This document shows positions 1,329 through 17,529 of a stretch of DNA of 20,000 bases, piece after piece. The number at the start of each line of letters is the position of its first letter. Position 1 is the stretch's first letter. This stretch comes from an uncultured virus (IMG/VR IMGVR_UViG_3300033149_002227) (Duplodnaviria; Heunggongvirae; Uroviricota; Caudoviricetes). The stretch is taken from positions 54,826 to 74,825 of the IMG/VR virus record IMGVR_UViG_3300033149_002227; one strand, written 5' to 3'. The translations under genes and the position numbers were made by a program. Below the pieces are notes generated by a model. That model saw only the letters and a program-made list of their open reading frames with translations, had not been told where the DNA came from and ran no database searches.

Positions 1329-2675
1329 ATGAAAACGATTCCAATAGGACCATCAATAGTGATGATGGTCGGTCCTTCTGGGGCTGGCAAGAGTACATTG
1401 ATAGAAAGGCACTTCAACTCGCGTGAAGTCATTTCTACCGATGCTCTGCGCGTGGAATTTACCGGCGACAAGCGTCGGCAAGATAAGGACGATGAGGTGC
1501 TGGCCGAGGTCAGTCGCCGTGTCGAAGCGAAAATTAATGTCGGGCAGCGCGTTGTTATCGACGCCACCCACGTGCGCGACCAAGATCGTCGCCGCTCACT
1601 CGAACTCGGACTGATGCTGGATGTCCCAATAACCTACTTGGTGGTGAACCGGTCGGTTGAATCCAAAATGCAAAAAGCAGGTTGGAGAAAGGACATTTAC
1701 GTTAAGAAGCTCACTAGCGGAAAACTTGTTAGCCTCATCGAGGCACACGAAGATACCTTCGTAGCCAACGAACACAAAATTCTTGCCGGTGACAGTCAAG
1801 GTAAGAAAGTCACGGTTATCGATACTCGCGTGGAAGAGTTCAAAGTCGCCCGCGAACTATCACGGGAAAATCCGGTTGAACAGTTGATATCGAGTGGTTT
1901 CAATCGCGTGCGTGTCGTCGCTGACGTGCACGGAAATCTGGAATCATTTCGTAAGGCTATCGACGTACCCGAGGACACCTTCCTGTTGTTTTTGGGAGAC
2001 CTATTGGACTACGATGTCCGTGGTATCCAGATTGTAGAACGTGTGTACAAAATGGTTCAAGAAGGCCGTGCTATCACTCTTCGTGGTAATCACGAACGGA
2101 AGATTGCGAACTGGGTTGTCAAGGAGCGTGGTAACGGTTTCGAAGGGAGTATCACTTCCGGCAACGACTTCACTGTTAATATGGTTAAGGCTATGACGCC
2201 AGCGCGTCGTGCTTTGTGGGAACGAAGGTTCCTAGCTCTGGTTGACCTGTCTCCTGATTGGATACAACTGGATCGGTTTCTATTCGTTCACGGTGCAGCA
2301 CACCGCTCTATTTGGGATGATACATTATTCCGTGCAGAGGAAGAATCGAAGCGTATGGCCATGGCCATGTTCGGTGAGTCCACAGGCAAGACCATCGGCG
2401 GTTACCCTGAGCGGTTGTACAACTGGGTTGATGATATTCCCACCCGACACACCGCTGTCGTTGGGCATGCCGTACTGTCAACCGAGGAGCCATTAACCAA
2501 AACCAATGACAAGGGTGGTAAGGCTATTTTCCTTGACACTGGTTCCTCGAAGGACATAGATGACTTCGGTCGCGGTCCTGCTGTTCGTGGACACCTGTCA
2601 TGGATGGAACTGAGCATTGGGGCTTTGTCACGCAATGGCAGCTATGTGGTGTTCGATGCATTTGGTCGGGACTGA
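1329..2675 (+). CDS. Polynucleotide kinase-phosphatase (P-loop kinase plus metallophosphoesterase), bacterial Pnkp-like, no ligase domain
   Basis: Walker A GPSGAGKS, ISTDALR and VIDATH in the kinase half; DVHG, GDLLD, GNHE, VHG, VGH and LDTG calcineurin-like motifs in the phosphatase half. Confidence 0.88.
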   Translation: MKTIPIGPSIVMMVGPSGAGKSTLIERHFNSREVISTDALRVEFTGDKRRQDKDDEVLAEVSRRVEAKINVGQRVVIDATHVRDQDRRRSLELGLMLDVPITYLVVNRSVESKMQKAGWRKDIYVKKLTSGKLVSLIEAHEDTFVANEHKILAGDSQGKKVTVIDTRVEEFKVARELSRENPVEQLISSGFNRVRVVADVHGNLESFRKAIDVPEDTFLLFLGDLLDYDVRGIQIVERVYKMVQEGRAITLRGNHERKIANWVVKERGNGFEGSITSGNDFTVNMVKAMTPARRALWERRFLALVDLSPDWIQLDRFLFVHGAAHRSIWDDTLFRAEEESKRMAMAMFGESTGKTIGGYPERLYNWVDDIPTRHTAVVGHAVLSTEEPLTKTNDKGGKAIFLDTGSSKDIDDFGRGPAVRGHLSWMELSIGALSRNGSYVVFDAFGRD

Positions 2676-3021: not shown

Positions 3022-3036
3022 TTGGAGAAATTAATT

Positions 3037-4662
3037 ATGCTACGTACAAAATCATCAAGTTGGTTCATTCCATTCTGCTTTGTCGGAGCGTTGATAGGTA
3101 TAATTCTCACGACCGGTCACTCTCCTGCCGCCCAACTCCGCTACGACACCAGTTCTCAACTGAATTACGGCGAACAATTCCAACGGGTACTCGATGCAAT
3201 ACGTGGCAATAGCGTTAATGCCGAGGCAGTAAAATCAGAGGAAGATTTATTCAATATTGCCGTCGATGCCATTTTGGAAAAAATTGGTGATAAGCACGGA
3301 AGATATTTTTCCGCTGAAGAATACCAACGGTTACAAGGCGACCTTCGACCTGCAAATTATACCGGTGTGGGGATTCAAATTGCTCCCGGCGCAGGTGGTG
3401 CCATTATTCTCAACATATTTGACAATTCTCCATTGCATAACATGGGCGTTAGAGTAGGTGATTTAATCACCGCTGCTGGTTCTCTGGGTGAACCGATGGT
3501 TGAATACGATCCAGAAGACCTGATGGTAATCGTAACCGCAATTAAAGGACGGGCAGGGACGGATGTTATATTAAACACCAGACGTGGAACTCGGAACCTT
3601 CCGCCTATTACTGTTCCACGAATACAGACTAGAAATCAATACGTGTATATGAAACGTTCCGAGACCGGAGTTCTCACAATACGAGTGACACAGTTTTCCG
3701 GTTCAGTCATCGGTGATATCAAATCTATGCTATCAGATCGAGGGTGGTTAGGTAGAAACGACGTGCTGGATACGAGTATTATCAAAGGTGTGGTTTTGGA
3801 TTTGCGGGGTAATCCCGGTGGTATATTGGGTCAAGCGGTATACGTTAGTGATTTGTTTCTCCCAAAGGACGTATCAGCAGTTCGCGTCATCGAGCGCCCC
3901 GAAGTTGAAGGCGGACCGGCTATGGCGTATAATTACCTAACTGCTGACGAAAGAATGTTCCCTGTTGATATTCCACGAGTAATATTGATAAACGGCGGTT
4001 CGGCGTCTGCATCGGAAATCGTTGCCGGAGCAGTACAAACACATGCCGAAGGTCTCATCATGGGTATTAAATCCTACGGTAAAGGTTCGGTGCAAACTGT
4101 CATTGATTTGCCCGGAGGAACCGGCATTAAAACCACCTCGGCTATCTACTTTGCGGGTGGCACCATGGAAATCGATGGTATCGGAGTAATGCCTGATGCT
4201 GTAGTTCTTCAACCCGACCCTATCGGACTGAGTGCCGACGACAAGAGTTTCAATGGTCACCTTATAAAGATTTCAATGGACCCCGAAATGGATCACCAAT
4301 TGAATGTGGCTCATACTTACATCAATGCATTTATCAGTGGTGAGCATGTATTGGACGTACCGGAATCACGACAGGCTGCGGAAAACAAAGCACACGGTGC
4401 TGAAACCAAACTCATAAACATTTGCGACCAACGGGGACTTCGGGGTTGTCCACCAGTGGATATCACATTATTCGAAAACATTGATCACGGTTCGTTTTTA
4501 TCAGATACGGATGCTGCGGGTTGGATGTGTTACCCAGACGAAGGAGAAACCGAGTGGGACGACATGTCATTTCTGGATGGCTACGGCATAAGTGATTTAT
4601 TCAGCCTTTCTTTATCGGGCCAAATGTGTCCAAATGACGAAATAACATTTACGTTGGAATAA
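3037..4662 (+). CDS. S41 C-terminal processing (tail-specific) protease, CtpA/Prc-like, with PDZ domain and N-terminal signal/anchor
   Basis: YTGVGI PDZ loop, LDLRGNPGG, catalytic SASASEIV and GKGSVQ, GIGVMPD, hydrophobic N-terminus. GGAG RBS precedes the ATG at 3037. Confidence 0.93.
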   Translation: MLRTKSSSWFIPFCFVGALIGIILTTGHSPAAQLRYDTSSQLNYGEQFQRVLDAIRGNSVNAEAVKSEEDLFNIAVDAILEKIGDKHGRYFSAEEYQRLQGDLRPANYTGVGIQIAPGAGGAIILNIFDNSPLHNMGVRVGDLITAAGSLGEPMVEYDPEDLMVIVTAIKGRAGTDVILNTRRGTRNLPPITVPRIQTRNQYVYMKRSETGVLTIRVTQFSGSVIGDIKSMLSDRGWLGRNDVLDTSIIKGVVLDLRGNPGGILGQAVYVSDLFLPKDVSAVRVIERPEVEGGPAMAYNYLTADERMFPVDIPRVILINGGSASASEIVAGAVQTHAEGLIMGIKSYGKGSVQTVIDLPGGTGIKTTSAIYFAGGTMEIDGIGVMPDAVVLQPDPIGLSADDKSFNGHLIKISMDPEMDHQLNVAHTYINAFISGEHVLDVPESRQAAENKAHGAETKLINICDQRGLRGCPPVDITLFENIDHGSFLSDTDAAGWMCYPDEGETEWDDMSFLDGYGISDLFSLSLSGQMCPNDEITFTLE

Positions 4663-5396
4663 TGTCGAAGTTCCCAACAATCAAGACAATCGACGACGTA
4701 CTGCCGTTCGTCAAGCATCACGAAGAGTTCACCGTGACTGAACATCAATGGGGTATATCAATTGATTACCAGACACCAGATGTAACCACGTTCAATACCC
4801 CACAGGCGAGAGAATGTCGCGGCATAAAATTCCGCTTGGACGGTAGTCTTCTAGCTCGCCCTTATCACAAGTTCTTCAATATCGGTGGTTCGCGAATGCG
4901 CACTGAAGCATTGATTGCGTCAGGGCGCTTCGACAACAAACACACTATCCTCTATATGCCGCATGGCTCGATGATTCACCCAATCGTTCATAATGACACG
5001 GTGTTCTTTTGCACCCGCTCGGGGATCACTGACGTAGCTGAGCAAGCACTCAGGTTTGTCACGCCTGTCCACGACTCACAGAACGCCGGACCGTGGTGTA
5101 CGGATTTCTGCTATGATTTGGCAAAATCAAATCTCACAGCAATTTTTGAATGGTGCCCCCAAGTTGAACCCGTTCAAAAATATCCAGCAAACAGGCTAGT
5201 ACTGACCGCTATCCGTACAAATCAAACTGGGGAATACCTCAGCTATGACAGCATGCGAGCACTAGCCGGTTCGTACTATATTCCTATGATCGGTTCCTTC
5301 GATGGCGACTGGACAGACGTTGCGAAAAATGAAAGTTATGTCATTCGGTGGAATGATGGTATGATGGGTAAACTCAGAAATAATCGCGGAAAATGA
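4662..5396 (+). CDS. T4 Rnl1-like RNA ligase homologue with degenerate catalytic motif
   Basis: ECRGIKF, ARPYHKFFNIG, GSMI, TRSG, TAIFEW, LTAIR and ESYVI...KLR follow the Rnl1 pattern, but motif I KxDG reads MPHG. Confidence 0.8.
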   Translation: MSKFPTIKTIDDVLPFVKHHEEFTVTEHQWGISIDYQTPDVTTFNTPQARECRGIKFRLDGSLLARPYHKFFNIGGSRMRTEALIASGRFDNKHTILYMPHGSMIHPIVHNDTVFFCTRSGITDVAEQALRFVTPVHDSQNAGPWCTDFCYDLAKSNLTAIFEWCPQVEPVQKYPANRLVLTAIRTNQTGEYLSYDSMRALAGSYYIPMIGSFDGDWTDVAKNESYVIRWNDGMMGKLRNNRGK

Positions 5397-6223: not shown

Positions 6224-7092
6224 AGTCCTGCGTTGTAATGTGCAAGGATTCGGGCATCGGGTAGCATGTAGTTGTAGATAGCTATGTTATCGTACTGGCC
6301 ATCCGTCCGCGAAAAACTATCAAACGATGTATAACCAACTCTGAAAAATGTTTGGTTACCACCCCCATTATAACCAGTGGCGTAACCCACAGTATCATAT
6401 TCTACCCCATCGATCCAGAATGTAATCGTTTTCGCTAATCCGTTCCGTGTGGTAACAATATGATGAACGGTGTTGAGTGATAACTGCGCCGTCGCCGATG
6501 TCGTGACTATTGGCGAGCGAACATTGATTTCGTGATAGGCTCCGAGATGACCGGTGGAATTCACCGTTAAACTCCATAAGGCATTGTATTGAGCCTGTGG
6601 TAGGTTCGTCTGTGTACCACAGTGCACTATATGGTTCCGATCATTCAATGCACCACTTCCGCCACTAAAAGTATCCAACTTAACCCAACATTCAATGCTC
6701 ATGTAGCTTATTAACTGCAAGAGATTTTGACCAGTCTGAATCAGGTGCCCTCCATTGTAGGTGGTGGGTGGGACGATATCTGCATTTGCTCCGGGAAAAT
6801 CATATACTCCTCCCCCATCATTGACCAATCCGGGGAGGCCGTTAGGACCAGCACCGGGAAGAAGAGGTGGTGAAGGATTACCAGAAGTGAGCCGTGCATC
6901 AAATCCTGTACTCCGCTCGTGACCGGTCACTTGAGCTATGAATGCATTAGGTCCAGAATCAGTCGTAAATGTACCGCCAATGCCCCACGCATCGTTCAAT
7001 TCGTAAAAGACGACAGGATTATCAGCAAGCACCTCGTCAGAAGCCGAGATCGTAGGCTGATTGACCATATGCGCTGTGATGCCCGCGTGCAT
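6220..7092 (-). CDS. LamG/concanavalin-like domain virion protein
   Basis: DNPVVFYEL, SIECWVK, HHIVTT, FWIDG and IAIYNYMLP..I..HY LamG-like motifs. The ATG at 7092 overlaps the upstream TAA (TAATG). Confidence 0.8.
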   Translation of the reverse strand: MHAGITAHMVNQPTISASDEVLADNPVVFYELNDAWGIGGTFTTDSGPNAFIAQVTGHERSTGFDARLTSGNPSPPLLPGAGPNGLPGLVNDGGGVYDFPGANADIVPPTTYNGGHLIQTGQNLLQLISYMSIECWVKLDTFSGGSGALNDRNHIVHCGTQTNLPQAQYNALWSLTVNSTGHLGAYHEINVRSPIVTTSATAQLSLNTVHHIVTTRNGLAKTITFWIDGVEYDTVGYATGYNGGGNQTFFRVGYTSFDSFSRTDGQYDNIAIYNYMLPDARILAHYNAGL

Positions 7093-8996
7093 TATACAGG
7101 CACCAAGTTGCCGAACAATGTCCAAGTAGTGGTGGTCACTTTAAGAGCCGTTGCTACTGCATATTGCCCGTTCAATACTAGAGTTAAGTTTGCATTAACA
7201 TTTAGCGTATCGGTGTCTATTGCTACCGTTGTTGCTCCCGCTCCCAGTTGTTGAAAATGGATTTCTGTTCCTATAGGATATGCAACAGAAGCATTGGATG
7301 GAAGTGTCACTGTGTTTGCACCTGCATTGTCCATTGTAACCATTTTACCAGAGTGTCCCAATGTAAACGCACCGGGTCCATATGACACTCCTGTTTGTAT
7401 TTCGAATTCAAGTTTTGCGTCTATACCACCATTCACAACTAGCGTAGACCCATCCCATGTGAAGTTCGGGTCACCTTCGAGTGTTCCGTCACCGGTCCAT
7501 ACACCGATCTGATTATTAACAGGGGTGCCTACCTTTATTACATCACCAGCACCCGCGATGGTCTGCCATGTTGCAGTGGTTGCACTAGTGGCTACTAGAG
7601 TCTGCCCGATTGTTGGGGGTATTGCTGCGTCCACATTTACGTCTGCACCAGTAGTGGCTAGGTCGGAGGCTGCACCGACATCCTGCCATGTTGCAGTGGT
7701 TGCACTAGTGGCTATTAGAAACTGTCCGATTGTTGGGGGTGCGGCGAGGTCTATGTTTACGTCTGCACCACTCGTGGCTAGGTCGGAAGCCGCAGCGCCA
7801 CTAGCTGTGAGATCGATACCATTCCAAGTAATAGTACCGCCATCGTTATATAATTTGTCTGTTGTAACAGTTGGGGCTGTTTGGGAAGGAATAACAATAG
7901 CACCGGAAGAACCACCACCAGCACCAGCGCCCGGGGTTAGTGTCACGTTACCACCAGCCGCTATTCCGAGTGCATCACCAGCAGTCACGTTAACGTCACC
8001 ACCGACACCACTCAATTGCGGTAGACCGCCGAGGATGTTAACGTCACCACCACCACCAGTACCAGTACCACCAGCACCACCGATAACAGACGCAGCACCA
8101 CCAGCACCGTTGGAAGTATCACCTTCACCACCGGTTATGGAGATCGCACCACCAGTATTTGCGGCACCAACGCCAGCACCGGCAGTCAATGAAATTGGGG
8201 CACCGTCGGCGGCAACAGAAGCACCGGGGTTGATTATTACTTCACCACCAATACCTGTTGTGGAGTCACCACCAGTAATCGCAACTGCACCACCAGCGGC
8301 GGCAGTACCAACACCACCTGTAATGGATACGCTACCACCAACATTACCAGTACCAGAATCACCAGCACCGATGGACACAAGTCCACCCAGTCCGATTGCA
8401 GCATCACCAGCAGCAAGAACAACACTACCACCAATACCAGCAGCAGCACCACCAGCACCAGCAGTCAAGCCGATATCACCGCCGTTACCATTGGTACCAC
8501 CATCACCGGTTACGAAGTTCATAGTACCACCAGCGGCGGCTATGTTGCCGTCACCAGTTGTGACCGTGAACCCGACACCAGTATTACCGGCATTGCCAGT
8601 AGGGGTTTCGATATCGAATCCCGCAGTGGACCAATTGAGAACAGAAGCGGGCACAACATAGGTGCCAGAGTTATCACCCATGGTGAATGCGATAATGTTA
8701 TCATCGACACCCGTGAAGTTTTCGACATAAATTTGGGTGTTGAGATCGGCGTCTTCTAGTTTGGACAGTACGACACCACTAACACCAGCTAGGATAGCCC
8801 AACCACCACTGTATATTTCGAAGTCACCAAAGTCAGTGTTGTACCGCATCATGCCATTGGTTGGTGAGGCAGGGCGTTGAGCCGTGCCACCAACTGGGAT
8901 GGTCATCGAGGTAGTCCCGGGCAATTCAACGAGAGTTTCACCCGAGGCTGCAATAGTAGGCCAGAGTGTATCTCTCCAGTGGTTTTCTTGTGTCAT
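7092..8996 (-). CDS. Gly-rich tail fibre/virion structural protein (paralogue B)
   Basis: PVGGTAQRP..GMMRYNTD...E module, many GG(D/N)V.I..G repeats, C-terminal VTLP...PIGTEI...W.L.G domain. Confidence 0.8.
   Translation of the reverse strand: MTQENHWRDTLWPTIAASGETLVELPGTTSMTIPVGGTAQRPASPTNGMMRYNTDFGDFEIYSGGWAILAGVSGVVLSKLEDADLNTQIYVENFTGVDDNIIAFTMGDNSGTYVVPASVLNWSTAGFDIETPTGNAGNTGVGFTVTTGDGNIAAAGGTMNFVTGDGGTNGNGGDIGLTAGAGGAAAGIGGSVVLAAGDAAIGLGGLVSIGAGDSGTGNVGGSVSITGGVGTAAAGGAVAITGGDSTTGIGGEVIINPGASVAADGAPISLTAGAGVGAANTGGAISITGGEGDTSNGAGGAASVIGGAGGTGTGGGGDVNILGGLPQLSGVGGDVNVTAGDALGIAAGGNVTLTPGAGAGGGSSGAIVIPSQTAPTVTTDKLYNDGGTITWNGIDLTASGAAASDLATSGADVNIDLAAPPTIGQFLIATSATTATWQDVGAASDLATTGADVNVDAAIPPTIGQTLVATSATTATWQTIAGAGDVIKVGTPVNNQIGVWTGDGTLEGDPNFTWDGSTLVVNGGIDAKLEFEIQTGVSYGPGAFTLGHSGKMVTMDNAGANTVTLPSNASVAYPIGTEIHFQQLGAGATTVAIDTDTLNVNANLTLVLNGQYAVATALKVTTTTWTLFGNLVPV
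7563..7796. repeat. Two tandem ~120-bp in-frame repeats (40 aa unit)
   Basis: ctgccatgttgcagtggttgcactagtggcta occurs at 7563 and 7683; the protein has AASDLAT.GADVN.D.A.PPTIGQ.L.ATSATTATWQ twice. Confidence 0.92.
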
Positions 8997-9050: not shown

Positions 9051-11090
9051 TTAGGCATTTGCCAGAATACCAAAACAAACACGAGCCAATGTAGAACCCG
9101 TATCAGGGGTGGTGTATGTCATTATGAGTTCATCACCTGCGCTAAGGACTAGTGGACCGAGAGCCGCCACGACACCAGTAAGTGATCCGATGGCGAATGT
9201 TATCGTTCCTATTGACGTACCGGGAGCAGTACCACCGGGTGATGCAACATGGAGATCGAATGTCGCCGGAGAAACCGAGGCCGTTGTCAGGGCATCACAA
9301 TAAGCAAAATGTCCACCGGTTCCCAAAGTAATAGTTCGTGGAATCGCCCAACGATGCACGTTTAGACCGGGAGTGGCAGCTACGAGCGAACTTCCCAAAT
9401 ATGCATTCAGATCATATGGGTGTAGTGCGGCAGCAATTTCGGTATCAACATAATTCATGGTGGCAGCGTCTTGCGCTATTACGGGATCAAGTACGTTACC
9501 GATTGCAAAGGCACCAGCGTTGATAGCACCAGTCATGGTACCACCAGCCAGTGCTAGGAATGGACCAATAGCAGCAATTCCATCATCAACGTATTTCTTG
9601 TTCGGCATATCATTATTAGCCAGAACCAGAGCTTCGTAAGATGCCGTTGATGTGGACAATGTACCATCGTCCTCAACCGTGAATCGTGTTGCACCACCAG
9701 TAGCCATGTTGATAGCACCATGAGGGCTACCTGTACCAGCCGTCAGAGTGATATCGCCAGCAGGAACACCAGTAGCATTGGCAGTAGATATATTGAAGGC
9801 ACCAGAGCCACCAGCACCAGAACCAGTGATCGCACTGATATCACCACCAAATTCTCCACCGCCACCACCGCCGTCACCTGCGATAATAGCCAAATCACCA
9901 CCATCACCAGACCCACTACCAGCACCGGATGTAATGGTTAAGGCACCACCAACATCACCATTACCACCAGCACCAGCATTCAAAAGCAATGCACCACCTA
10001 CGCCGGATGTTGTGCCACCGGCACCAGCGGTTACATCGATAGCACCACCAGCGGCTATGCCAAGTGAATCACCAGCAGTAATGTTAACATCACCACCAAC
10101 ACCACTCAGTTGCGGCACGCCACCGAGGATGTTAACATCACCACCATCACCAGTACCAGTACCACCAGCACCACCACTAATAGAGACAGTACCACCAGTA
10201 CCAGCCGAAGCATCACCTTCACCACCGGTTACGGAAATTGCACCACCAGAGTTTGCCGCACCAACACCAGCACCCGCGACTAAGCTAATAGGAGCACCAT
10301 CCGCAGCAACCGATGCCCCGGTAATAATATTGATCTCGCCGCCAATCCCTGATGTGGAAGCACCACCAATTAAGTTTATAGCCCCACCAGTATTTGTGGC
10401 ACCAAGACCAGCCGTAATCGTTACATCACTACCGGGGTTGCCACCGCCAGAATCACCAGCCGAGATAAAAACAGGTCCACCAATACCAGCGGTACCATTA
10501 CCAGCAGCAAACAGTAGACTACCACCGTTACCGAAGGAAGCACCACCTGCACCAGCGATTATATTAATAGGACCACCAGTAGTGTTAGTTCCGCCACCAC
10601 CAGTTGTGATATTGATAGCACCACCAGCGAAGGCTGCATCACCTGCACCAGTTGTTACCGTGAATCCGACACCAGCGTTCGAGGAAGCACCGGAGGGGGT
10701 TGTGATTCCGAATCCACTCGTTGACCAGTTAAGTACCGAAGCAGGCATGGTATAGGTGCCAGAATTATCACCCATTGTGAATGCGATAATGTTATCATCG
10801 ACACCCGTGAAATTTTCAACGTAGATTTCGGTGTTGAGGTCGCCGTCTTCTAGTTTGGACAGGGTAACACCAGCAAGAGTAGCCAAGATAGCCCATACAC
10901 CATTATACGCTTCAAAGTCGCCGAGGTCGGTGTTGAACCGCATCATGCCGTTGGCTGGTGAAGCAGGGCGTTCAGACGTGTCGCCGACTGGGATAAGTGT
11001 AGCAGTGGTTCCGGGCAAATCTACGAGGGTTTCACCCGACGCGTAAATGGTAGGCCAGAGTGTATCTTTCCAATGGTCTTGTTGTGTCAT
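9051..11090 (-). CDS. Gly-rich tail fibre/virion structural protein (paralogue A)
   Basis: N-terminal ~350 aa closely similar to 7092-8996; fibre-type NKKYVD, GGTMTG and DAATMNYVD motifs; distinct C-terminus. Confidence 0.8.
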   Translation of the reverse strand: MTQQDHWKDTLWPTIYASGETLVDLPGTTATLIPVGDTSERPASPANGMMRFNTDLGDFEAYNGVWAILATLAGVTLSKLEDGDLNTEIYVENFTGVDDNIIAFTMGDNSGTYTMPASVLNWSTSGFGITTPSGASSNAGVGFTVTTGAGDAAFAGGAINITTGGGGTNTTGGPINIIAGAGGASFGNGGSLLFAAGNGTAGIGGPVFISAGDSGGGNPGSDVTITAGLGATNTGGAINLIGGASTSGIGGEINIITGASVAADGAPISLVAGAGVGAANSGGAISVTGGEGDASAGTGGTVSISGGAGGTGTGDGGDVNILGGVPQLSGVGGDVNITAGDSLGIAAGGAIDVTAGAGGTTSGVGGALLLNAGAGGNGDVGGALTITSGAGSGSGDGGDLAIIAGDGGGGGGEFGGDISAITGSGAGGSGAFNISTANATGVPAGDITLTAGTGSPHGAINMATGGATRFTVEDDGTLSTSTASYEALVLANNDMPNKKYVDDGIAAIGPFLALAGGTMTGAINAGAFAIGNVLDPVIAQDAATMNYVDTEIAAALHPYDLNAYLGSSLVAATPGLNVHRWAIPRTITLGTGGHFAYCDALTTASVSPATFDLHVASPGGTAPGTSIGTITFAIGSLTGVVAALGPLVLSAGDELIMTYTTPDTGSTLARVCFGILANA

Positions 11091-11129
11091 GGTCCGTTCC
11101 TGTCAATGTACTACTTATTTACGCGATAC

Positions 11130-11160
11130 TTGACACCAAACGGGATTGGGTATATAAATA
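11130..11160 (+). promoter_or_regulatory. Promoter of the tmRNA gene (sigma70-like, overlapping TATAAATA)
   Basis: TTGACA (11130-11135), 17 nt spacer, TATAAA(TA) (11153-11160). Predicted start near 11165 matches the first paired base of the acceptor piece. Confidence 0.7.
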
Positions 11161-11164
11161 AGAT

Positions 11165-11440
11165 TACAGTTGCTTGAGCGAACCTTGGACGCTCTGCGGA
11201 CGCGGGTTCGAATCCCGCCACCTCCACCACTATGGGGGTGCACCGGTTTCGACGTGGTGATGAAAGACAAGTAGTGAGACTGTCGGGTAAGATATCCCCG
11301 AAAAGATTCAATTAAACTATCAGCAAACGATAGCTTCTATGATGGAGAGTACGCTCTCGCTGCGTAAGCAGGAGGCAGATTCTCAAGCGGTCTAAACAAC
11401 CGACACATCCGAGGTGTAATGAGCCTTGTTACCAAAGTAC
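11165..11440 (+). ncRNA. ssrA: Circularly permuted (two-piece) tmRNA; outer ends approximate
   Basis: T-arm GCGGG-TTCGAAT-CCCGC (11202-11218) and CACCTCC-A-CCA (11219-11229) precede GGGGGTG (11234-11240). These form a 7-bp acceptor stem with G3:U70. GGTTTCGAC motif follows; tag ORF 11323-11367 encodes ANDSFYDGEYALAA*. Confidence 0.95.
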
Positions 11441-11442
11441 TA

Positions 11443-11497
11443 GAGAAGGGCAGTTGGCGTTGACCGTGAATACGGACCACTGCCCTTCTCGTTTTCT
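11443..11497 (+). terminator. Long hairpin/probable terminator after tmRNA
   Basis: GAGAAGGGCAGT (11443-11454) pairs with ACTGCCCTTCTC (11479-11490); inner CCGT-GAAT-ACGG hairpin; followed by GTTTTCT. Confidence 0.75.
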
Positions 11498-11561
11498 ACC
11501 CCTCCGAAACTCCTAAAATGATAAGTACTAATGTGAAAAAATTTACACAGGAGATTCAGTG

Positions 11562-11867
11562 ATGGCTCAAGTCAGTTATGCCACACGTAGGAAGATTCGT
11601 ATCATCGAAAAGGAACTGGGAGCCGACTGGGAAACTCAGCATGCCGGTAAATCGATTGACGCGATCTACAACATCGTTATGGGTGACTTCCGCAAAAATC
11701 TATTTTGCAAAGTAGACCCAGAGACCAAAACAAAATTAGATGAAATGGTCGAATATAATGACATGCAAATGTCATCTTTAGTTGAAAAACTCGTCCGTGA
11801 GGAGTATGATAGGTATACACATGATCGAGATGCACGTGCCGACCATCTAGCATCTCAATTTGCCTAA
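11562..11867 (+). CDS. Putative ribbon-helix-helix DNA-binding protein
   Basis: KNLFCKVDPETKTKLDEMVEYNDMQMSSLVEKLVREE fits an RHH pattern; AGGAG RBS. Confidence 0.6.
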   Translation: MAQVSYATRRKIRIIEKELGADWETQHAGKSIDAIYNIVMGDFRKNLFCKVDPETKTKLDEMVEYNDMQMSSLVEKLVREEYDRYTHDRDARADHLASQFA

Positions 11868-13309: not shown

Positions 13310-13522
13310 ATGCCTATCTATGAATACGAATGTAAGGCTTGTGATAAGCGTTCTGAGTTTATCCAAAAGTTCGATTCCGCCCCCAAACGGAAATGCCCAC
13401 GGTGCGGCGAACTAAAACTCAAAAAGGTGATTTCCCGTAGTTCCTTTCAGTTGAAAGGGTCTGGGTGGTATGAGACCGATTTTAAGAATAAGTCTGGAGG
13501 TTCAGATAATGAAAAACACTAA
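13310..13522 (+). CDS. FmdB-family zinc-ribbon protein
   Basis: MPIYEYECKAC...CPRCG...FQLKGSGWYETDF. Confidence 0.92.
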   Translation: MPIYEYECKACDKRSEFIQKFDSAPKRKCPRCGELKLKKVISRSSFQLKGSGWYETDFKNKSGGSDNEKH

Positions 13523-13742
13523 AGATACCGTGATGAACATGATCGCGGAACAAATGGGGATGCCCGTAGACGCTATAGAAACCACCCACAGAATGGTTGA
13601 TGATTTGGGAGCAGATTCGCTTCACGTCGTCGAGCTAATCATGGGATTGGAAGAAGAGTTCGAAATCGAAGTAGATGATGATGAATTCGACAAATGCACT
13701 ACTGTCCAACAAATAATTGATTATGTGAGCCTTGACTCCTGA
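13509..13742 (+). CDS. acpP: Acyl carrier protein
   Basis: DDLGADSLHVVELIMGLEEEFEIEV...TTVQQIIDYV; GGAGG RBS before the ATG at 13509. Confidence 0.92.
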   Translation: MKNTKDTVMNMIAEQMGMPVDAIETTHRMVDDLGADSLHVVELIMGLEEEFEIEVDDDEFDKCTTVQQIIDYVSLDS

Positions 13743-13788
13743 TCAGTTAGGTTATATGTTGATAGGATAGTAATAGAGGCAAACCCTA

Positions 13789-14334
13789 ATGCGCTGGTGG
13801 ATTCCCGTATCCAAAATCTGTAAGTTCCTTTCGTGGACAACCGAAGAGGATGGTATAACACATCAACACGGTTTGTACCGGCTCATAACCGACAGGGAGA
13901 TGAGCGAGCCGTATCTACATCGGTATTATCTCCTGAGCACCAGATGGTTGAAGCACTGGTTCCCAAAACTCTCCTACCGACTAGTGTTGCACAAGTGTGT
14001 GCGATCCGATGCTGATGGTCTCCATGATCACCCATGGGCTTGGAAGTCGAAAATACTCGACGGCGGTTATTGGGAATCCATCCCACGCTTATCAGAGGCA
14101 GACCCCGATTTCGAAACCTCAAGGGAGACCGCGAGGGTGTGGCGTGATCCGAAGGATGGATGGCGCAAAGGAAGTGCACTCGCGTACCATCGGCTCGAAT
14201 TGCCCCATGAAGGTGCAGAATCATGGTCTCTATTTCTAATGGGGCCGAAGGAAAAGGATTGGGGATTTCAAGATCGCCACGGTGTTTGGGTTCAGTGGGA
14301 AGAATACATTCACAACCGGCACCTATATCTATAA
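13789..14334 (+). CDS. Phage cupin-like protein
   Basis: PYL.RY, LH...SD...HDHPW....IL.GGY.E, HRLEL, WSLF..G....WGF. Confidence 0.7.
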   Translation: MRWWIPVSKICKFLSWTTEEDGITHQHGLYRLITDREMSEPYLHRYYLLSTRWLKHWFPKLSYRLVLHKCVRSDADGLHDHPWAWKSKILDGGYWESIPRLSEADPDFETSRETARVWRDPKDGWRKGSALAYHRLELPHEGAESWSLFLMGPKEKDWGFQDRHGVWVQWEEYIHNRHLYL

Positions 14335-14642: not shown

Positions 14643-16085
14643 ATGTCATCAGACGCTAGCGACGAAGATATTGCACGTGCCAAAGCGGAGACAGAGTTTC
14701 TAGTCACGCCTTCCCAATTATATCAAACACTGGAACACTGCCTTTCCGCAGTCACCCCAGAAGGACAACCCAAAGAACAAGCGAACGTGATGGTATGGGG
14801 TGCCATGGGTATCGGTAAGACCGATGTCTGTCGTACTCTCGGCGTGCCATGGGGCATGCGCATAGTTTCCCTCCACCTTCCACAGTACGACCCTACTGAC
14901 CTAAAAGGCATTCCGATATTTCTTGATGACAAGGGCAACACTCTTGCTGAAACGGATTCCAAAGGTAAGGTTCGCTGGATACCTTCCAGTTATCTCCCAC
15001 AATTCATCAACCGTATTATTGATGAAGAATGCACCGAAGCAACCTTCGTATTTGATTGGCCAGATGCCGAGCAAATCATGGTTCACCTTTATTCGCCTGA
15101 TGGTAAGATTATTTGCCGTGCGAATGATCAGATGCAGGGCGATCTTGGTTTGGACAAATACACGGTTGATATCGATTCCATTAAGGGAACTGTAATGGTA
15201 CGTGGTGACCTCCAGAAGGGAGCCCGAATCCACGTCATCGACAAAGCCATCATCTTCCTTGATGAGCTTTCCGCCGCCGTACCTGAAGTACAGAACGCTG
15301 CTCTCCAGTTGGTACTGGACAAGCGTGTCGGTGAATATGACGTTCCTCCTTTTACTCCGCTGATTGCCGCTGGTAATCGTGAATCGGATCAGGCTTTCGT
15401 AAGCCCGATGTCCATGCCCCTGTGTAACAGGTTCATGCACCTTCGCCTCATTCACTCTGTGGAAGACTGGATGGACTGGGCTGTCATCAAACGCATCGAT
15501 CCTTCAATCCTTGGTTACATCCAGTGGAAGAAGCATCACCTGTTTCATTTCGAGCCCGACACTATCACCGAGGGTGATTGTGGTTTCCCCACACCTCGTT
15601 CGTGGGCTAAGCTCAGTGAGCAAATGAAAGGAATGGACGGATTACCAGAGTCGATTCAGGCTGCAATCATTACTGGTTACATCGGTAAGGCTATCGGTCA
15701 GCAGTTCATCGAACACCGAAAGATAGCACATAAGCTGCCTTCTACGGACGAAATTCTTCAGGGTAAGGAACCCGATATCCCTGACGACTTGAATGTTGGA
15801 GCCAAGTACCACCTTGCCTTGGGTCTGTGCTATGCACTTGCTGATTACCATGCCAAGTACTTCGACGAAGAACTCGGTAATGATGCGGAGTTCCAATGCA
15901 AAGAATGGCAGACAGCAGCCAACTCGTTCTGCAACTTCATCCACGATAATTTAGGTAAGGAGATGACGGTACTGTGTGTACACGTTGCCTCCCGTCATTT
16001 GGATATTTCATTCGTGAAATTCCGAAGCCCTAAGTTTACAGCCTTCGCCAAGAAGTATCGGAACATCATCCGCAGGACTATCTAA
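14643..16085 (+). CDS. MoxR/dynein-related AAA+ ATPase
   Basis: Walker A GAMGIGKT, DPTDLKGIP, Walker B IIFLDE, AAGNR, L.NRF.H, TPRSW. Confidence 0.92.
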   Translation: MSSDASDEDIARAKAETEFLVTPSQLYQTLEHCLSAVTPEGQPKEQANVMVWGAMGIGKTDVCRTLGVPWGMRIVSLHLPQYDPTDLKGIPIFLDDKGNTLAETDSKGKVRWIPSSYLPQFINRIIDEECTEATFVFDWPDAEQIMVHLYSPDGKIICRANDQMQGDLGLDKYTVDIDSIKGTVMVRGDLQKGARIHVIDKAIIFLDELSAAVPEVQNAALQLVLDKRVGEYDVPPFTPLIAAGNRESDQAFVSPMSMPLCNRFMHLRLIHSVEDWMDWAVIKRIDPSILGYIQWKKHHLFHFEPDTITEGDCGFPTPRSWAKLSEQMKGMDGLPESIQAAIITGYIGKAIGQQFIEHRKIAHKLPSTDEILQGKEPDIPDDLNVGAKYHLALGLCYALADYHAKYFDEELGNDAEFQCKEWQTAANSFCNFIHDNLGKEMTVLCVHVASRHLDISFVKFRSPKFTAFAKKYRNIIRRTI

Positions 16086-16086
16086 C

Positions 16087-17529
16087 ATGCAATTGCATGA
16101 ATTCGATGCGACTATCCTCGGAATAGCCGAGAGTGAGGAACAGTCTAACAAGTTTGTTCCTCCTCCGCGACGGTTCCGTAAGGATGAGTTCGCCGACGAG
16201 GATGCTTACAATGATCTCATCGTTGCCAAATCTCAGCTCCTTAAAGAATTCCCGTTTTGGGGAATTCTTGGGCTGACGGTGGTATTGGTCGAGCGTCCCG
16301 ATGACGAATTACCAACGCTTGCCACTGATGGTATGCACATTTTCTACAACGCGAATTTCACAAAAAAACTCACAAAGGGTGAACGTGTTTTCGCCATAGC
16401 CCACGAACTGTTTCATGGTCTATACGATCACGCTGGCAACAACAGCCGCTTCGAACATTATACCGGTATCAATATGAAACGGTTGTTCGAAGAGGGCGAT
16501 CAGGAAAAGATAAAAGAAGGGATGAGGCTGAAAATGCTTTGGAACTTTGCCGCCGACTTTATAGTTAATGGCGGACTGGTCGAAGCCCACGTTGGTGAAT
16601 TCATCAAGACAATCAATATCCTTTACGATGACGAATATCTTGGTTGGGCGGTCGAAGATGTTTACGATGACCTCCTGAAGAATCCTGAAAAGATTCCACA
16701 GGACGCACAGTGCCTAGACGAACACATCGAAGTTGAGGTTGTGTCTGACGAGGAAGCTGCCAAGGCCAAGGAAGAAGGGAAAGACGGCGAAGGCAACAGA
16801 TTCGTCATGGGAGAATCCGAATACGAGAAATTGAAATACGAGTGGAAAGAAACCATGATCTCTGCCGCTGCTGCTCAGAAGGAACACGAGCAACGCGAAT
16901 CGACTGCTGCCGGTTGTATCCCTACAGCCATTCAACGCCTTATAGACGAACTGGCGAAGCCGAAGGTGAACTGGAGGCAGGCATTGCGCCGTGCGGTCCA
17001 ACGAATCATCCACCGACGGTATTCGTACAAGTCTCCAAACAAGGGGCTCTTCAGTCGTGGCATCACAATCCCGGGTTTCCGTGATTCTGTAAACAAGCTG
17101 GATGTTGCTATCTTCGTCGATACCTCTGGTTCCGTTAGTGAGGCACAGTTAACCGCATTTATTTCCGAATTCAAAGGCATGATGGACGCATTCCCGCGTT
17201 ACAAAATCCACGCTCACTGTTTCGACGGTGCTGTCTGTGAAGAGAGTATTGTCAAGCTGGAGAAAAGCCATGGGCAAGATGGTTGGGACCACATCCGTAA
17301 ATTCATTAATCGTATTTCCGGTGGTGGTGGTACAGACTTCCAATGCAACTGGGATTACCTCAAGGAACACAATATTAAGCCACGCATGATCATCATGTTG
17401 ACGGACGGTTATCCGTGCGGTGGTTGGGGTGACCCCCGATGGGCTCCTACCATATTCTTCATGATGGGGAATGGTAGATCAATCAAGGCACCGTTCGGAG
17501 CAACGATTCATTACGAAGACTTCCAATGA
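16087..17529 (+). CDS. HExxH metallopeptidase-like plus vWA domain protein (DUF2201-like)
   Basis: ATDG...YN, AHELFH, WN.AAD..VN; MIDAS DTSGS, GGGTDF, TDGY. Confidence 0.9.
   Translation: MQLHEFDATILGIAESEEQSNKFVPPPRRFRKDEFADEDAYNDLIVAKSQLLKEFPFWGILGLTVVLVERPDDELPTLATDGMHIFYNANFTKKLTKGERVFAIAHELFHGLYDHAGNNSRFEHYTGINMKRLFEEGDQEKIKEGMRLKMLWNFAADFIVNGGLVEAHVGEFIKTINILYDDEYLGWAVEDVYDDLLKNPEKIPQDAQCLDEHIEVEVVSDEEAAKAKEEGKDGEGNRFVMGESEYEKLKYEWKETMISAAAAQKEHEQRESTAAGCIPTAIQRLIDELAKPKVNWRQALRRAVQRIIHRRYSYKSPNKGLFSRGITIPGFRDSVNKLDVAIFVDTSGSVSEAQLTAFISEFKGMMDAFPRYKIHAHCFDGAVCEESIVKLEKSHGQDGWDHIRKFINRISGGGGTDFQCNWDYLKEHNIKPRMIIMLTDGYPCGGWGDPRWAPTIFFMMGNGRSIKAPFGATIHYEDFQ

Follow-up and report, generated by a model that had tools for sequence, protein, structure and literature searches.

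A putative permuted tmRNA gene of betaproteobacterial type on a fragment of an uncultured jumbo phage

The subject of this work is a stretch of 20,000 bases (hereafter the window, always at its full length), the last 20 kb of the 74,825-base IMG/VR virus record IMGVR_UViG_3300033149_002227, in which we find a gene for transfer-messenger RNA (tmRNA, gene ssrA). tmRNA frees stalled ribosomes, and judged from its sequence the window gene is a circularly permuted one, of the type that gives a two-piece RNA. It very probably represents a complete, expressed-looking permuted ssrA carried by a jumbo myovirus, belonging by descent, as a diverged member, to the two-piece lineage of Betaproteobacteria (Rhodocyclaceae type), which is now in circulation among phages. 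As a beta-type two-piece tmRNA on a jumbo phage, the gene is real and probably functional.

Identity of the gene and conservation of its fold and tag

A scan of the whole window with Rfam 15 returned one family above its cut-off, tmRNA_permuted (RF04321), at 11166-11367 on the plus strand, with 101 bits and E 5.2e-19 against a gathering cut-off of 47 bits; such a score, from the sole family across 20 kb, is more than chance. The match takes in model positions 1-213 of 213, the acceptor piece coming ahead of the coding piece in the DNA. No riboswitch family in the window attained its threshold. This bears out the preliminary description of the locus, made from the letters alone, as a circularly permuted two-piece tmRNA gene, and the features listed there (an acceptor stem with G3:U70, A73 followed by CCA, a 4-base spacer, a tag frame and a stop codon set in a CTGC-GTAA-GCAG hairpin) all lie where it had placed them. 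The tRNA-Ala-like domain, with its 7-bp acceptor stem including G3:U70, the discriminator A73, the 3' CCA and a T-loop of UUCGAnU type, aligns to the RF04321 consensus and is invariant in all four related sequences described below. The tag frame (11323-11367) opens with an alanine resume codon and closes with a hydrophobic LAA tail before the stop.

The window gene forms a four-member subfamily with three relatives, L173 (85% identity over 328 bases), L180 (77% over 213 bases) and L103 (73% over 243 bases). Nine helices were tested on the alignment of these four sequences, a number for which the slide and shuffle controls are no more than indicative: 92% of the cells were paired, against 37-51% when the partners were slid by 1-3 columns, and changes on both sides were seen in seven pairs, a count reached by none of 500 shuffles. 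The acceptor stem and the T-arm are invariant and fully paired in the four sequences. The outer cross-piece helix has three of its five pairs changed on both sides and all of its cells paired, L103 carrying GGUAAUC and GAUUACC at this place, and in the hairpin before the tag three of the four pairs are compensatory in the relatives (94% paired). Helix P2a is paired in 89% of its cells, with U.U turned into A-U in L103 and G-U into A-U in L173. In the 3' domain, hairpin A has one pair changed on both sides in L173 and a natural variant in sequencing run X17 (11391 T>C with 11399 A>G, U-A to C-G), while the six pairs of hairpin B are 100% paired, two of them varying on one side only. The stop-codon hairpin is paired in 83% across the relatives, which form small hairpins there with other pairs. 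Two helices between the pieces had been proposed in the preliminary description, of which the outer one, ACAGU with ACUGU, stands with its compensatory changes; the other, UGCUUG 11171-76 with CAAGUA 11268-73, is weak (75% paired, no change on both sides, four of six pairs broken in at least one relative). A minimum-energy two-strand fold that pairs ACCUUGGA (11182-89) with UCCGAGGU (11408-15) was rejected, L173 having changed the first strand to AAGUUAGA with the second unchanged.

The four tags of the subfamily are ANDSFYDGEYALAA in the window and AYDSAYDGGFALAA, ANDAIYDEEDHGYALAA and ANEAIYDGDYALAA in the relatives, those of L180 and L103 being called independently by ARAGORN. Their last four codons (A-L-A-A) vary at third positions only (GCT/GCA/GCC, CTC/CTT/CTA, GCT/GCG and GCG/GCC), and the insertion in the L180 tag, of 9 bases, keeps the frame. 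By this comparison the tag is under selection as a peptide.

Signals for transcription are present on both sides of the gene, as had also been read from the letters. The hexamers and the 17-base spacing of the putative sigma-70-type promoter are kept in all four subfamily members (the window, L173, L180 and L103), with differing spacer sequences. Transcription likely starts near 11165-66, so that the acceptor piece would need no trimming at its 5' end. Downstream, the terminator-like stem and its UUUU have counterparts in L173 and L103, which carry different hairpins with a U-run at the same place. A simple promoter and terminator scan lists neither the tmRNA promoter nor the downstream hairpin, the first because its rule demands T at position 6 of the -10 element and the second because the loop exceeds 8 bases, the maximum of the scan. 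The T4 late-promoter word TATAAATA (11153-11160) overlaps the -10 hexamer and is shared by the promoters of all four subfamily members; its reading as a T4-type late promoter was dropped, the word being a single occurrence in a 74.8-kb record full of structural genes, with a chance expectation of 0.66 in the window. The parts of the gene are collected in Table 1.

Table 1. Predicted parts of the tmRNA gene and its flanking signals, in window coordinates
Feature	Position	Strand	Description
Sigma-70-type promoter	11130-11158	+	TTGACA 11130-35, 17-base spacer, TATAAA 11153-58
Acceptor piece, 64 nt	11166-11229	+	5' strand of long helix P2, T-arm, acceptor 3' strand, A73, encoded CCA; from RF04321 alignment
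T-arm	11202-11218	+	GCGGG 11202-11206, loop UUCGAAU, CCCGC 11214-11218
Acceptor 3' strand	11219-11225	+	CACCUCC, then discriminator A 11226 and CCA 11227-11229
Spacer	11230-11233	+	CUAU, intervening sequence
Acceptor 5' strand	11234-11240	+	GGGGGUG; 7 pairs; G11236:U11223 = G3:U70
Coding piece	11234-11442	+	Acceptor 5' strand, D-loop analogue, P2 3' strands, hairpins, tag frame, 3' domain; 3' end near 11442 inferred
D-loop analogue	11241-11252	+	CACCGGUUUCGA; within coding piece
Outer cross-piece helix	11166-11170 / 11279-11283	+	ACAGU / ACUGU; 5 pairs, covariation
Helix P2a	11192-11198 / 11253-11259	+	CUCUGCG / CGUGGUG; one U.U mismatch
Hairpin at place of pseudoknot 1, before tag	11284-11287 / 11297-11300	+	CGGG / CCCG; 9-base loop
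Tag reading frame	11323-11367	+	ANDSFYDGEYALAA; GCA resume codon to TAA 11365-11367
Stop-codon hairpin, helix-5-like	11360-11371	+	CUGC-GUAA-GCAG; CUGC 11360-63, GCAG 11368-71
3'-domain hairpin A	11388-11402 (11388-91 / 11399-402)	+	CGGU / ACCG; loop CUAAACA conserved
3'-domain hairpin B	11410-11415 / 11423-11428	+	CGAGGU / GCCUUG; with conserved tail, element 11410-11437
3' motif	11423-11437	+	GCCUUGUUACCAAAG; hairpin B 3' strand and tail
Terminator-like hairpin	11443-11497 (11443-54 / 11479-90)	+	GAGAAGGGCAGU / ACUGCCCUUCUC, then G and UUUU; predicted in fold

Lineage of the gene and its relatives

Among the lineage-specific Rfam models, beta_tmRNA (RF01850) gives the window gene its highest score, 65.6 bits, followed by the cyano model RF01851 with 49.2 bits, in a match restricted to model positions 54-122 (the tRNA-like part), and by the alpha model RF01849 with 42.8 bits, all of them under the cut-offs (84, 70 and 50 bits, respectively). 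As the beta score lies below its cut-off, the gene is placed in the beta lineage by descent and not as a member that passes the model, a placement with which the sequence comparisons are consistent and which was made by model and profile scores rather than by a tree, the RNA being short and saturated. With the same beta_tmRNA model the sister genes score 86.3 bits (L173, which passes), 78.3 (L180) and 75.1 (L103), and a weak second match of the window gene lies in the 3' part of its coding piece (11392-11442). A profile hidden Markov model of the subfamily aligned positions 19-280 of its 281 with Rhodocyclaceae ssrA genes at 60-93 bits; these are canonical beta_tmRNA genes, scoring 222-276 bits. 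The same profile gave at most 30 bits on 19 alphaproteobacterial genes and had no match on the alpha-type gene of Sinorhizobium phage Phosso.

Beyond the tRNA-like domain, the window gene has the parts specific to the beta type: the placement of the promoter and 5' leader, a long composite P2, the 3' hairpin with its tail motif and a very short spacer. The promoter columns of the Rfam beta_tmRNA alignment line up with its TTGACA-17-TATAAA, and the 3' motif GCCUUGUUACCAAAG is found letter for letter in a Rhodocyclaceae gene (L034). Compactness had been taken as a special trait of this phage copy, a view that the bacterial genes contradict: among the 61 genome loci that score at least 50 bits on the profile, 57 have a spacer of 4 bases, mostly CTNN, three have 3 bases and L103 has 21, and the very CTAT of the window is found in one Accumulibacter metagenome-assembled genome (MAG; L044).

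Relatives were collected with a degenerate pattern that begins in the T-arm, spans the spacer and ends in the acceptor 5' strand. It matched 21 viral contigs, one of which (L020, contig G001) has the identical sequence. All of the 20 that were scanned with Rfam (L024 was left out) match RF04321 with 77-147 bits, and in all 20 the best lineage model is beta_tmRNA, with 51-141 bits, nine of them passing the cut-off of 84. The same pattern found at least 120 loci in the genome collection, many of them in Rhodocyclaceae (Accumulibacter, Dechloromonas, Azonexus). An 18-base stretch from the D-loop and P2a matched at least 120 metagenome contigs; 121 loci were screened, including that of the twin contig (L145), and among the matches listed the permuted order is seen in four of them, L145 included, the rest looking one-piece. 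The close relatives L173 and L180 are two of these four. A blastn search (word 11) of 11100-11500 against 50,697 phage records gave no match.

The relative L103 lies on a 2.6-kb contig binned in an alphaproteobacterial MAG. Its neighbours are phage-like: as in the window, it is preceded by a tail-fibre-like gene on the opposite strand and followed by one that is Lar-like. Its score of 118.6 bits, the sole match of that MAG, is an outlier to the other genomes of the order, 19 of 20 of which have permuted genes of their own at 134-155 bits. From these neighbours and this outlying score we read the contig as probably a mis-binned phage fragment. The contig (L270, or G002:C200; 2,619 bases) holds the only permuted-tmRNA match of the MAG.

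The preliminary description had gone further and suggested an independent permutation, which would be a fourth one, the phage gene having become two-piece on its own from a one-piece ancestor. The window copy does fall below all three lineage-specific cut-offs, and the loop of its pre-tag hairpin is without the AGGCGA loop of the bacterial and the other viral beta-type genes. However, the break point, the 4-base spacer, the position of the promoter, that of the outer helix and the 3' hairpin with GCCUUGUUACCAAAG are common to Rhodocyclaceae genes, with which the profile aligns nearly end to end; beta_tmRNA is the best lineage model and the sister L173 passes it, and beta scores among the viral relatives range continuously from 51 to 141. 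An origin of this kind is very improbable, because all the features shared with Rhodocyclaceae would have to be recreated, and the suggestion is not borne out.

The locus might also be a non-functional relic, either a piece of a host ssrA taken along by imprecise excision or an attachment site that was kept and is unused as tmRNA. Phages that integrate into ssrA carry fragments of it, according to Buchholz et al. (2022, PMC9004378), and a 63-base stretch around the T-arm shares 92-94% identity with Accumulibacter genes. Against this, the gene is complete from promoter to terminator, and outside the universal core it has diverged beyond a BLAST match and yet keeps its pairing and its tag peptide. 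In addition, no integrase-annotated PHROG or Pfam family is among the matches in the annotated parts, and in the relatives, which are 73-85% identical, the gene still stands beside the same tail-fibre-like and Lar-like genes. We give the relic as little credence as the independent permutation.

Phage context, expression and possible use

The record covers part of the genome of a Rak2/Atu_ph07-like jumbo myovirus. Completeness of the record was estimated at 20% (CheckV, for 74.8 kb), implying a genome of ~370 kb. The 1,526-residue baseplate wedge protein matched 93 phage records, all below 60% identity, and the best matches belong to jumbo myoviruses with genomes of 350-490 kb (Sinorhizobium phage Phosso, Salicola phage SCTP-2, Agrobacterium phage Atu_ph07, Xanthomonas XaC1 and Cronobacter GAP32), sizes that fit the one implied by CheckV. 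Outside the window the record encodes SbcC/SbcD-like nucleases, a gp55-like late sigma factor, the baseplate wedge, a hub-lysozyme and a virion protein of 3,409 residues; within the window there are a dCMP deaminase, a polynucleotide kinase-phosphatase, an RnlA-type RNA ligase, tail-fibre-like genes and a GH108 endolysin. The phage context that had been assumed for the gene is confirmed by this T4-type baseplate together with the late sigma, SbcCD-like and endolysin genes. The twin IMG/VR contig G001 (83 kb) agrees with the record at 99.9% identity where the two overlap and extends 36.7 kb further, adding 12 tRNA genes, an Acb1-like protein, a DNA ligase and an Rv2179c-like 3'-5' exoribonuclease.

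Out of 24 sequencing runs listed, 20 hold part of the stretch and 15 half or more of its words; they are sediment, hydrothermal-vent, cold-seep and seawater metagenomes. Contigs of four runs were aligned on the stretch, using covered positions only. A 324-base contig of the sediment run X1 covers 11165-11488, and an 897-base contig of the vent run X2, from a separate study, covers 11197-11633, both with zero differences, and either run may be the source sample. In the marine metatranscriptome X17, a 156-base contig covers 11317-11446 with four differences (97% identical), which we take as a weak hint of transcription for a close variant. The contigs of X18 and most of those of X17 span only the universally conserved T-arm region.

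From the sequence, the lineage and the conservation of fold and tag observed here, a route for the RNA can be proposed. The sigma-70-type promoter would start a precursor at about 11166, host RNase P would cut it before G11234, and exonucleases would remove the 4-base CUAU trailer as far as the encoded CCA, leaving the 64-nt acceptor piece and a coding piece of ~210 nt held together by the 7-bp acceptor stem and helix P2. The host alanyl-tRNA synthetase could then charge the RNA by way of G3:U70 and A73, and with host SmpB the tmRNA would enter stalled ribosomes, where translation would resume on GCA. The peptide ANDSFYDGEYALAA would be added, its ALAA end marking the product for host proteases. 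For the phage, the benefit might lie in ribosomes kept free during infection, alongside its set of tRNAs.

Several points weigh against a functional two-piece tmRNA of the beta lineage. The window copy stays under the beta_tmRNA cut-off (65.6 of 84 bits), and ARAGORN in its default mode reports nothing for the window or the record; with -ps it gives a permuted tmRNA at 11137-11510 with a wrong tag. The default mode finds 23 of 24 relatives tested (with implausible tags for L173 and L247), and the miss thus reflects where this one copy falls relative to the threshold, not a blindness to the family. The middle of P2 (11171-11191 with 11260-11278) is rivalled by a local hairpin, GAGCG 11177-81 with CGCUC 11190-94. 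There is also no supported pseudoknot: inspected by eye on the four-sequence alignment, the loop of hairpin 11284-11300 showed no covarying partner in the pre-tag stretch or the 3' motif, and as regards pseudoknots the body looks simpler than that of a textbook one-piece tmRNA. The RNA-library contig of X17 has a depth of only 2 and shows no ends, in a kind of library where DNA can occur. SmpB (PF01668) was found in neither the record (G000) nor G001, a negative that says little, as the two fragments (111 kb) amount to about a third of the expected genome; that host SmpB and alanyl-tRNA synthetase are compatible with the RNA is an assumption. Finally, processing, charging, tagging and the benefit to the phage are steps that we infer.

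The tag of the window gene is 14 residues long, that of Rhodocyclaceae (ANDERFALAA) 10, and three of the four subfamily members conserve the additional YDG-E/D-Y block; the strings YDGEYALAA and YDGDYALAA had no match in a literature search. The window also encodes, 6.7 kb upstream of the tmRNA, an S41 C-terminal processing peptidase of 546 residues (3022-4662, plus strand; Pfam Peptidase_S41 E 4e-31; TIGR00225 'prc' E 2.4e-52, below the model cut-off), with no PHROG family at E<=0.001. Proteases of the S41/Tsp family act on ssrA-tagged proteins, and the presence of such a gene at this distance from a phage tmRNA is suggestive. The tmRNA could serve the phage's own ends, its longer acidic-aromatic tag (AN-D/E-x-F/I-Y-D-G-E/D-Y-ALAA) directing host proteins that carry it to a specific adaptor or protease, perhaps the Ctp/Tsp-like S41 enzyme of the phage, or outcompeting the host tmRNA, and similar ideas have been raised for phage Melnitz (PMC9004378). 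We hold this to be unlikely, since S41 genes are present in none of five other tmRNA-bearing viral fragments (18-63% complete), a result for which the idea that the protease regularly accompanies phage tmRNA was also rejected. The annotations of the 111 kb include neither an adaptor nor a Clp gene. Slightly less likely again is that the four sequences constitute a phage-only branch of the beta type, with its own tag of 14-17 residues (of the same AN-D/E-x-F/I-Y-D-G-E/D-Y-ALAA pattern) and a pseudoknot-free body, carried by marine-sediment jumbo phages with a Ctp/Tsp-like protease; if true, the phage would run its own tag-and-degrade route, beyond topping up host rescue.

Other genes around the tmRNA deserve mention. 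The S41 gene and a DUF5658 protein are flanked by a tRNA-repair pair, a polynucleotide kinase-phosphatase (AAA_33 and Metallophos domains, bacterial Pnkp-like; 1329-2675, plus strand) and a T4 RnlA-type RNA ligase (4662-5396, plus strand). Directly upstream of the tmRNA lie two adjacent tail-fibre-like paralogues on the minus strand (7092-8996 and 9051-11090), ~1.1 kb of each being 76% identical in DNA, with N-terminal virion-protein motifs common to both. Further downstream, a conserved phage pair is formed by an ATPase (phrog_1297; 14643-16085, plus strand) and a DUF2201 metallopeptidase/VWA-like protein (16087-17529, plus strand). The region 13310-14334 (plus strand) holds a zinc-ribbon protein, an acyl carrier protein and a match to phrog_4786 ('cysteine dioxygenase'), and a second phrog_4786 gene stands with two radical-SAM genes at G000:C1:39966-44720; together these may be a small modification or biosynthesis set. 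On G001 a 638-residue protein (L273:8896-10812) joins an Acb1 domain, of the kind that counters the cyclic-oligonucleotide-based anti-phage signalling system (anti-CBASS), to a PcfJ-like domain.

Annotation and comparison with known tmRNAs

The preliminary description had supposed that standard annotation misses this gene, which holds for the default mode of ARAGORN and fails for Rfam 15, where RF04321 finds the copy easily. This model dates from 2025, when the three lineage models were merged into one (PMC11915505). Pipelines based on Rfam with RF04321 will annotate the window copy; those that use ARAGORN only, as in huge-phage surveys, can miss such copies, which the newer Rfam model catches.

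The nearest known system is the beta two-piece tmRNA (RF01850) of Accumulibacter, Dechloromonas and other Rhodocyclaceae (L034, L043, L044, L081). The window gene has the same gene order, break point and 4-base spacer, a promoter equally far before the outer helix, the same P2 architecture, a pre-tag hairpin, a tag that begins with AND and ends with LAA, and the 3' hairpin with GCCUUGUUACCAAAG. It differs in its score (65.6 bits against 222-276 in the bacteria), in the length of the tag (14 residues against 10), in the loop of the pre-tag hairpin (UAAGAUAUC instead of the AGGCGA type), in having extra hairpins after the stop codon, in its lower G+C and in being phage-borne.

Two-piece tmRNAs are themselves known from phages. 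Buchholz et al. (2022) described the two-piece ssrA of the OM43 phage Melnitz and found 53 of 133 unique phage tmRNAs to be two-piece, 50 of them in marine or aquatic phages, and the three bacterial two-piece lineages are reported there to occur also in their phages (PMC9004378). The genes of Melnitz, a phage of Methylophilales, and of the pelagimyophages are likewise complete permuted ssrA genes with an early-type promoter on T4-like aquatic myoviruses, as described in that paper. The Melnitz gene, however, is of the alphaproteobacterial type and is accompanied by a glutamine riboswitch (PMC9004378), whereas the window gene is of the beta type, has no riboswitch family at threshold and belongs to a Rak2/Atu_ph07-like jumbo virus.

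Among the five closest cultured jumbo phages, only Sinorhizobium phage Phosso (469 kb), whose baseplate wedge is 33% identical, has a permuted tmRNA above cut-off, the other four having none. Its gene is of the alpha type (108 bits on RF01849) and spans 603 bases, in contrast to the beta-type gene of the window; the RF04321 match (L281, positions 349596-350198 of the Phosso record) runs over these 603 bases, with an unusually long stretch between the pieces. The alpha type of the Phosso gene agrees with the lineage of its Sinorhizobium host, and by the same token the beta type of the window gene hints at a host among Burkholderiales ("Betaproteobacteria").

tmRNA and SmpB have been reported from huge phages (Al-Shayeb et al., 2020, PMC7162821). 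These phages, larger than 200 kb, have a similar translation-related load of tRNAs and tmRNA; the tmRNAs of that survey were called by ARAGORN, whose default misses the window copy, and its available text does not separate one-piece from two-piece genes. Lists of phage tmRNAs go back to at least 2014 (PMC4131195), and the tmRNA database of 2025 contains 79 bacteriophage sequences (PMC11915505). A two-piece tmRNA in a phage is therefore of an already published kind, and the window gene is a diverged copy of the type found in Betaproteobacteria and in phages, not a new invention, which leaves what is known of the origin of permuted tmRNAs unchanged. What is specific to it is that it belongs to a small subfamily carried by phages, with a conserved tag of greater length, that its diverged body scores below the thresholds of the lineage models and of ARAGORN, and that a Ctp/Tsp-like protease gene lies nearby. 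Compared with the known systems, it would enlarge the translation toolkit of an uncultured jumbo phage, one of marine sediments and vents, by a diverged two-piece tmRNA of the beta type.

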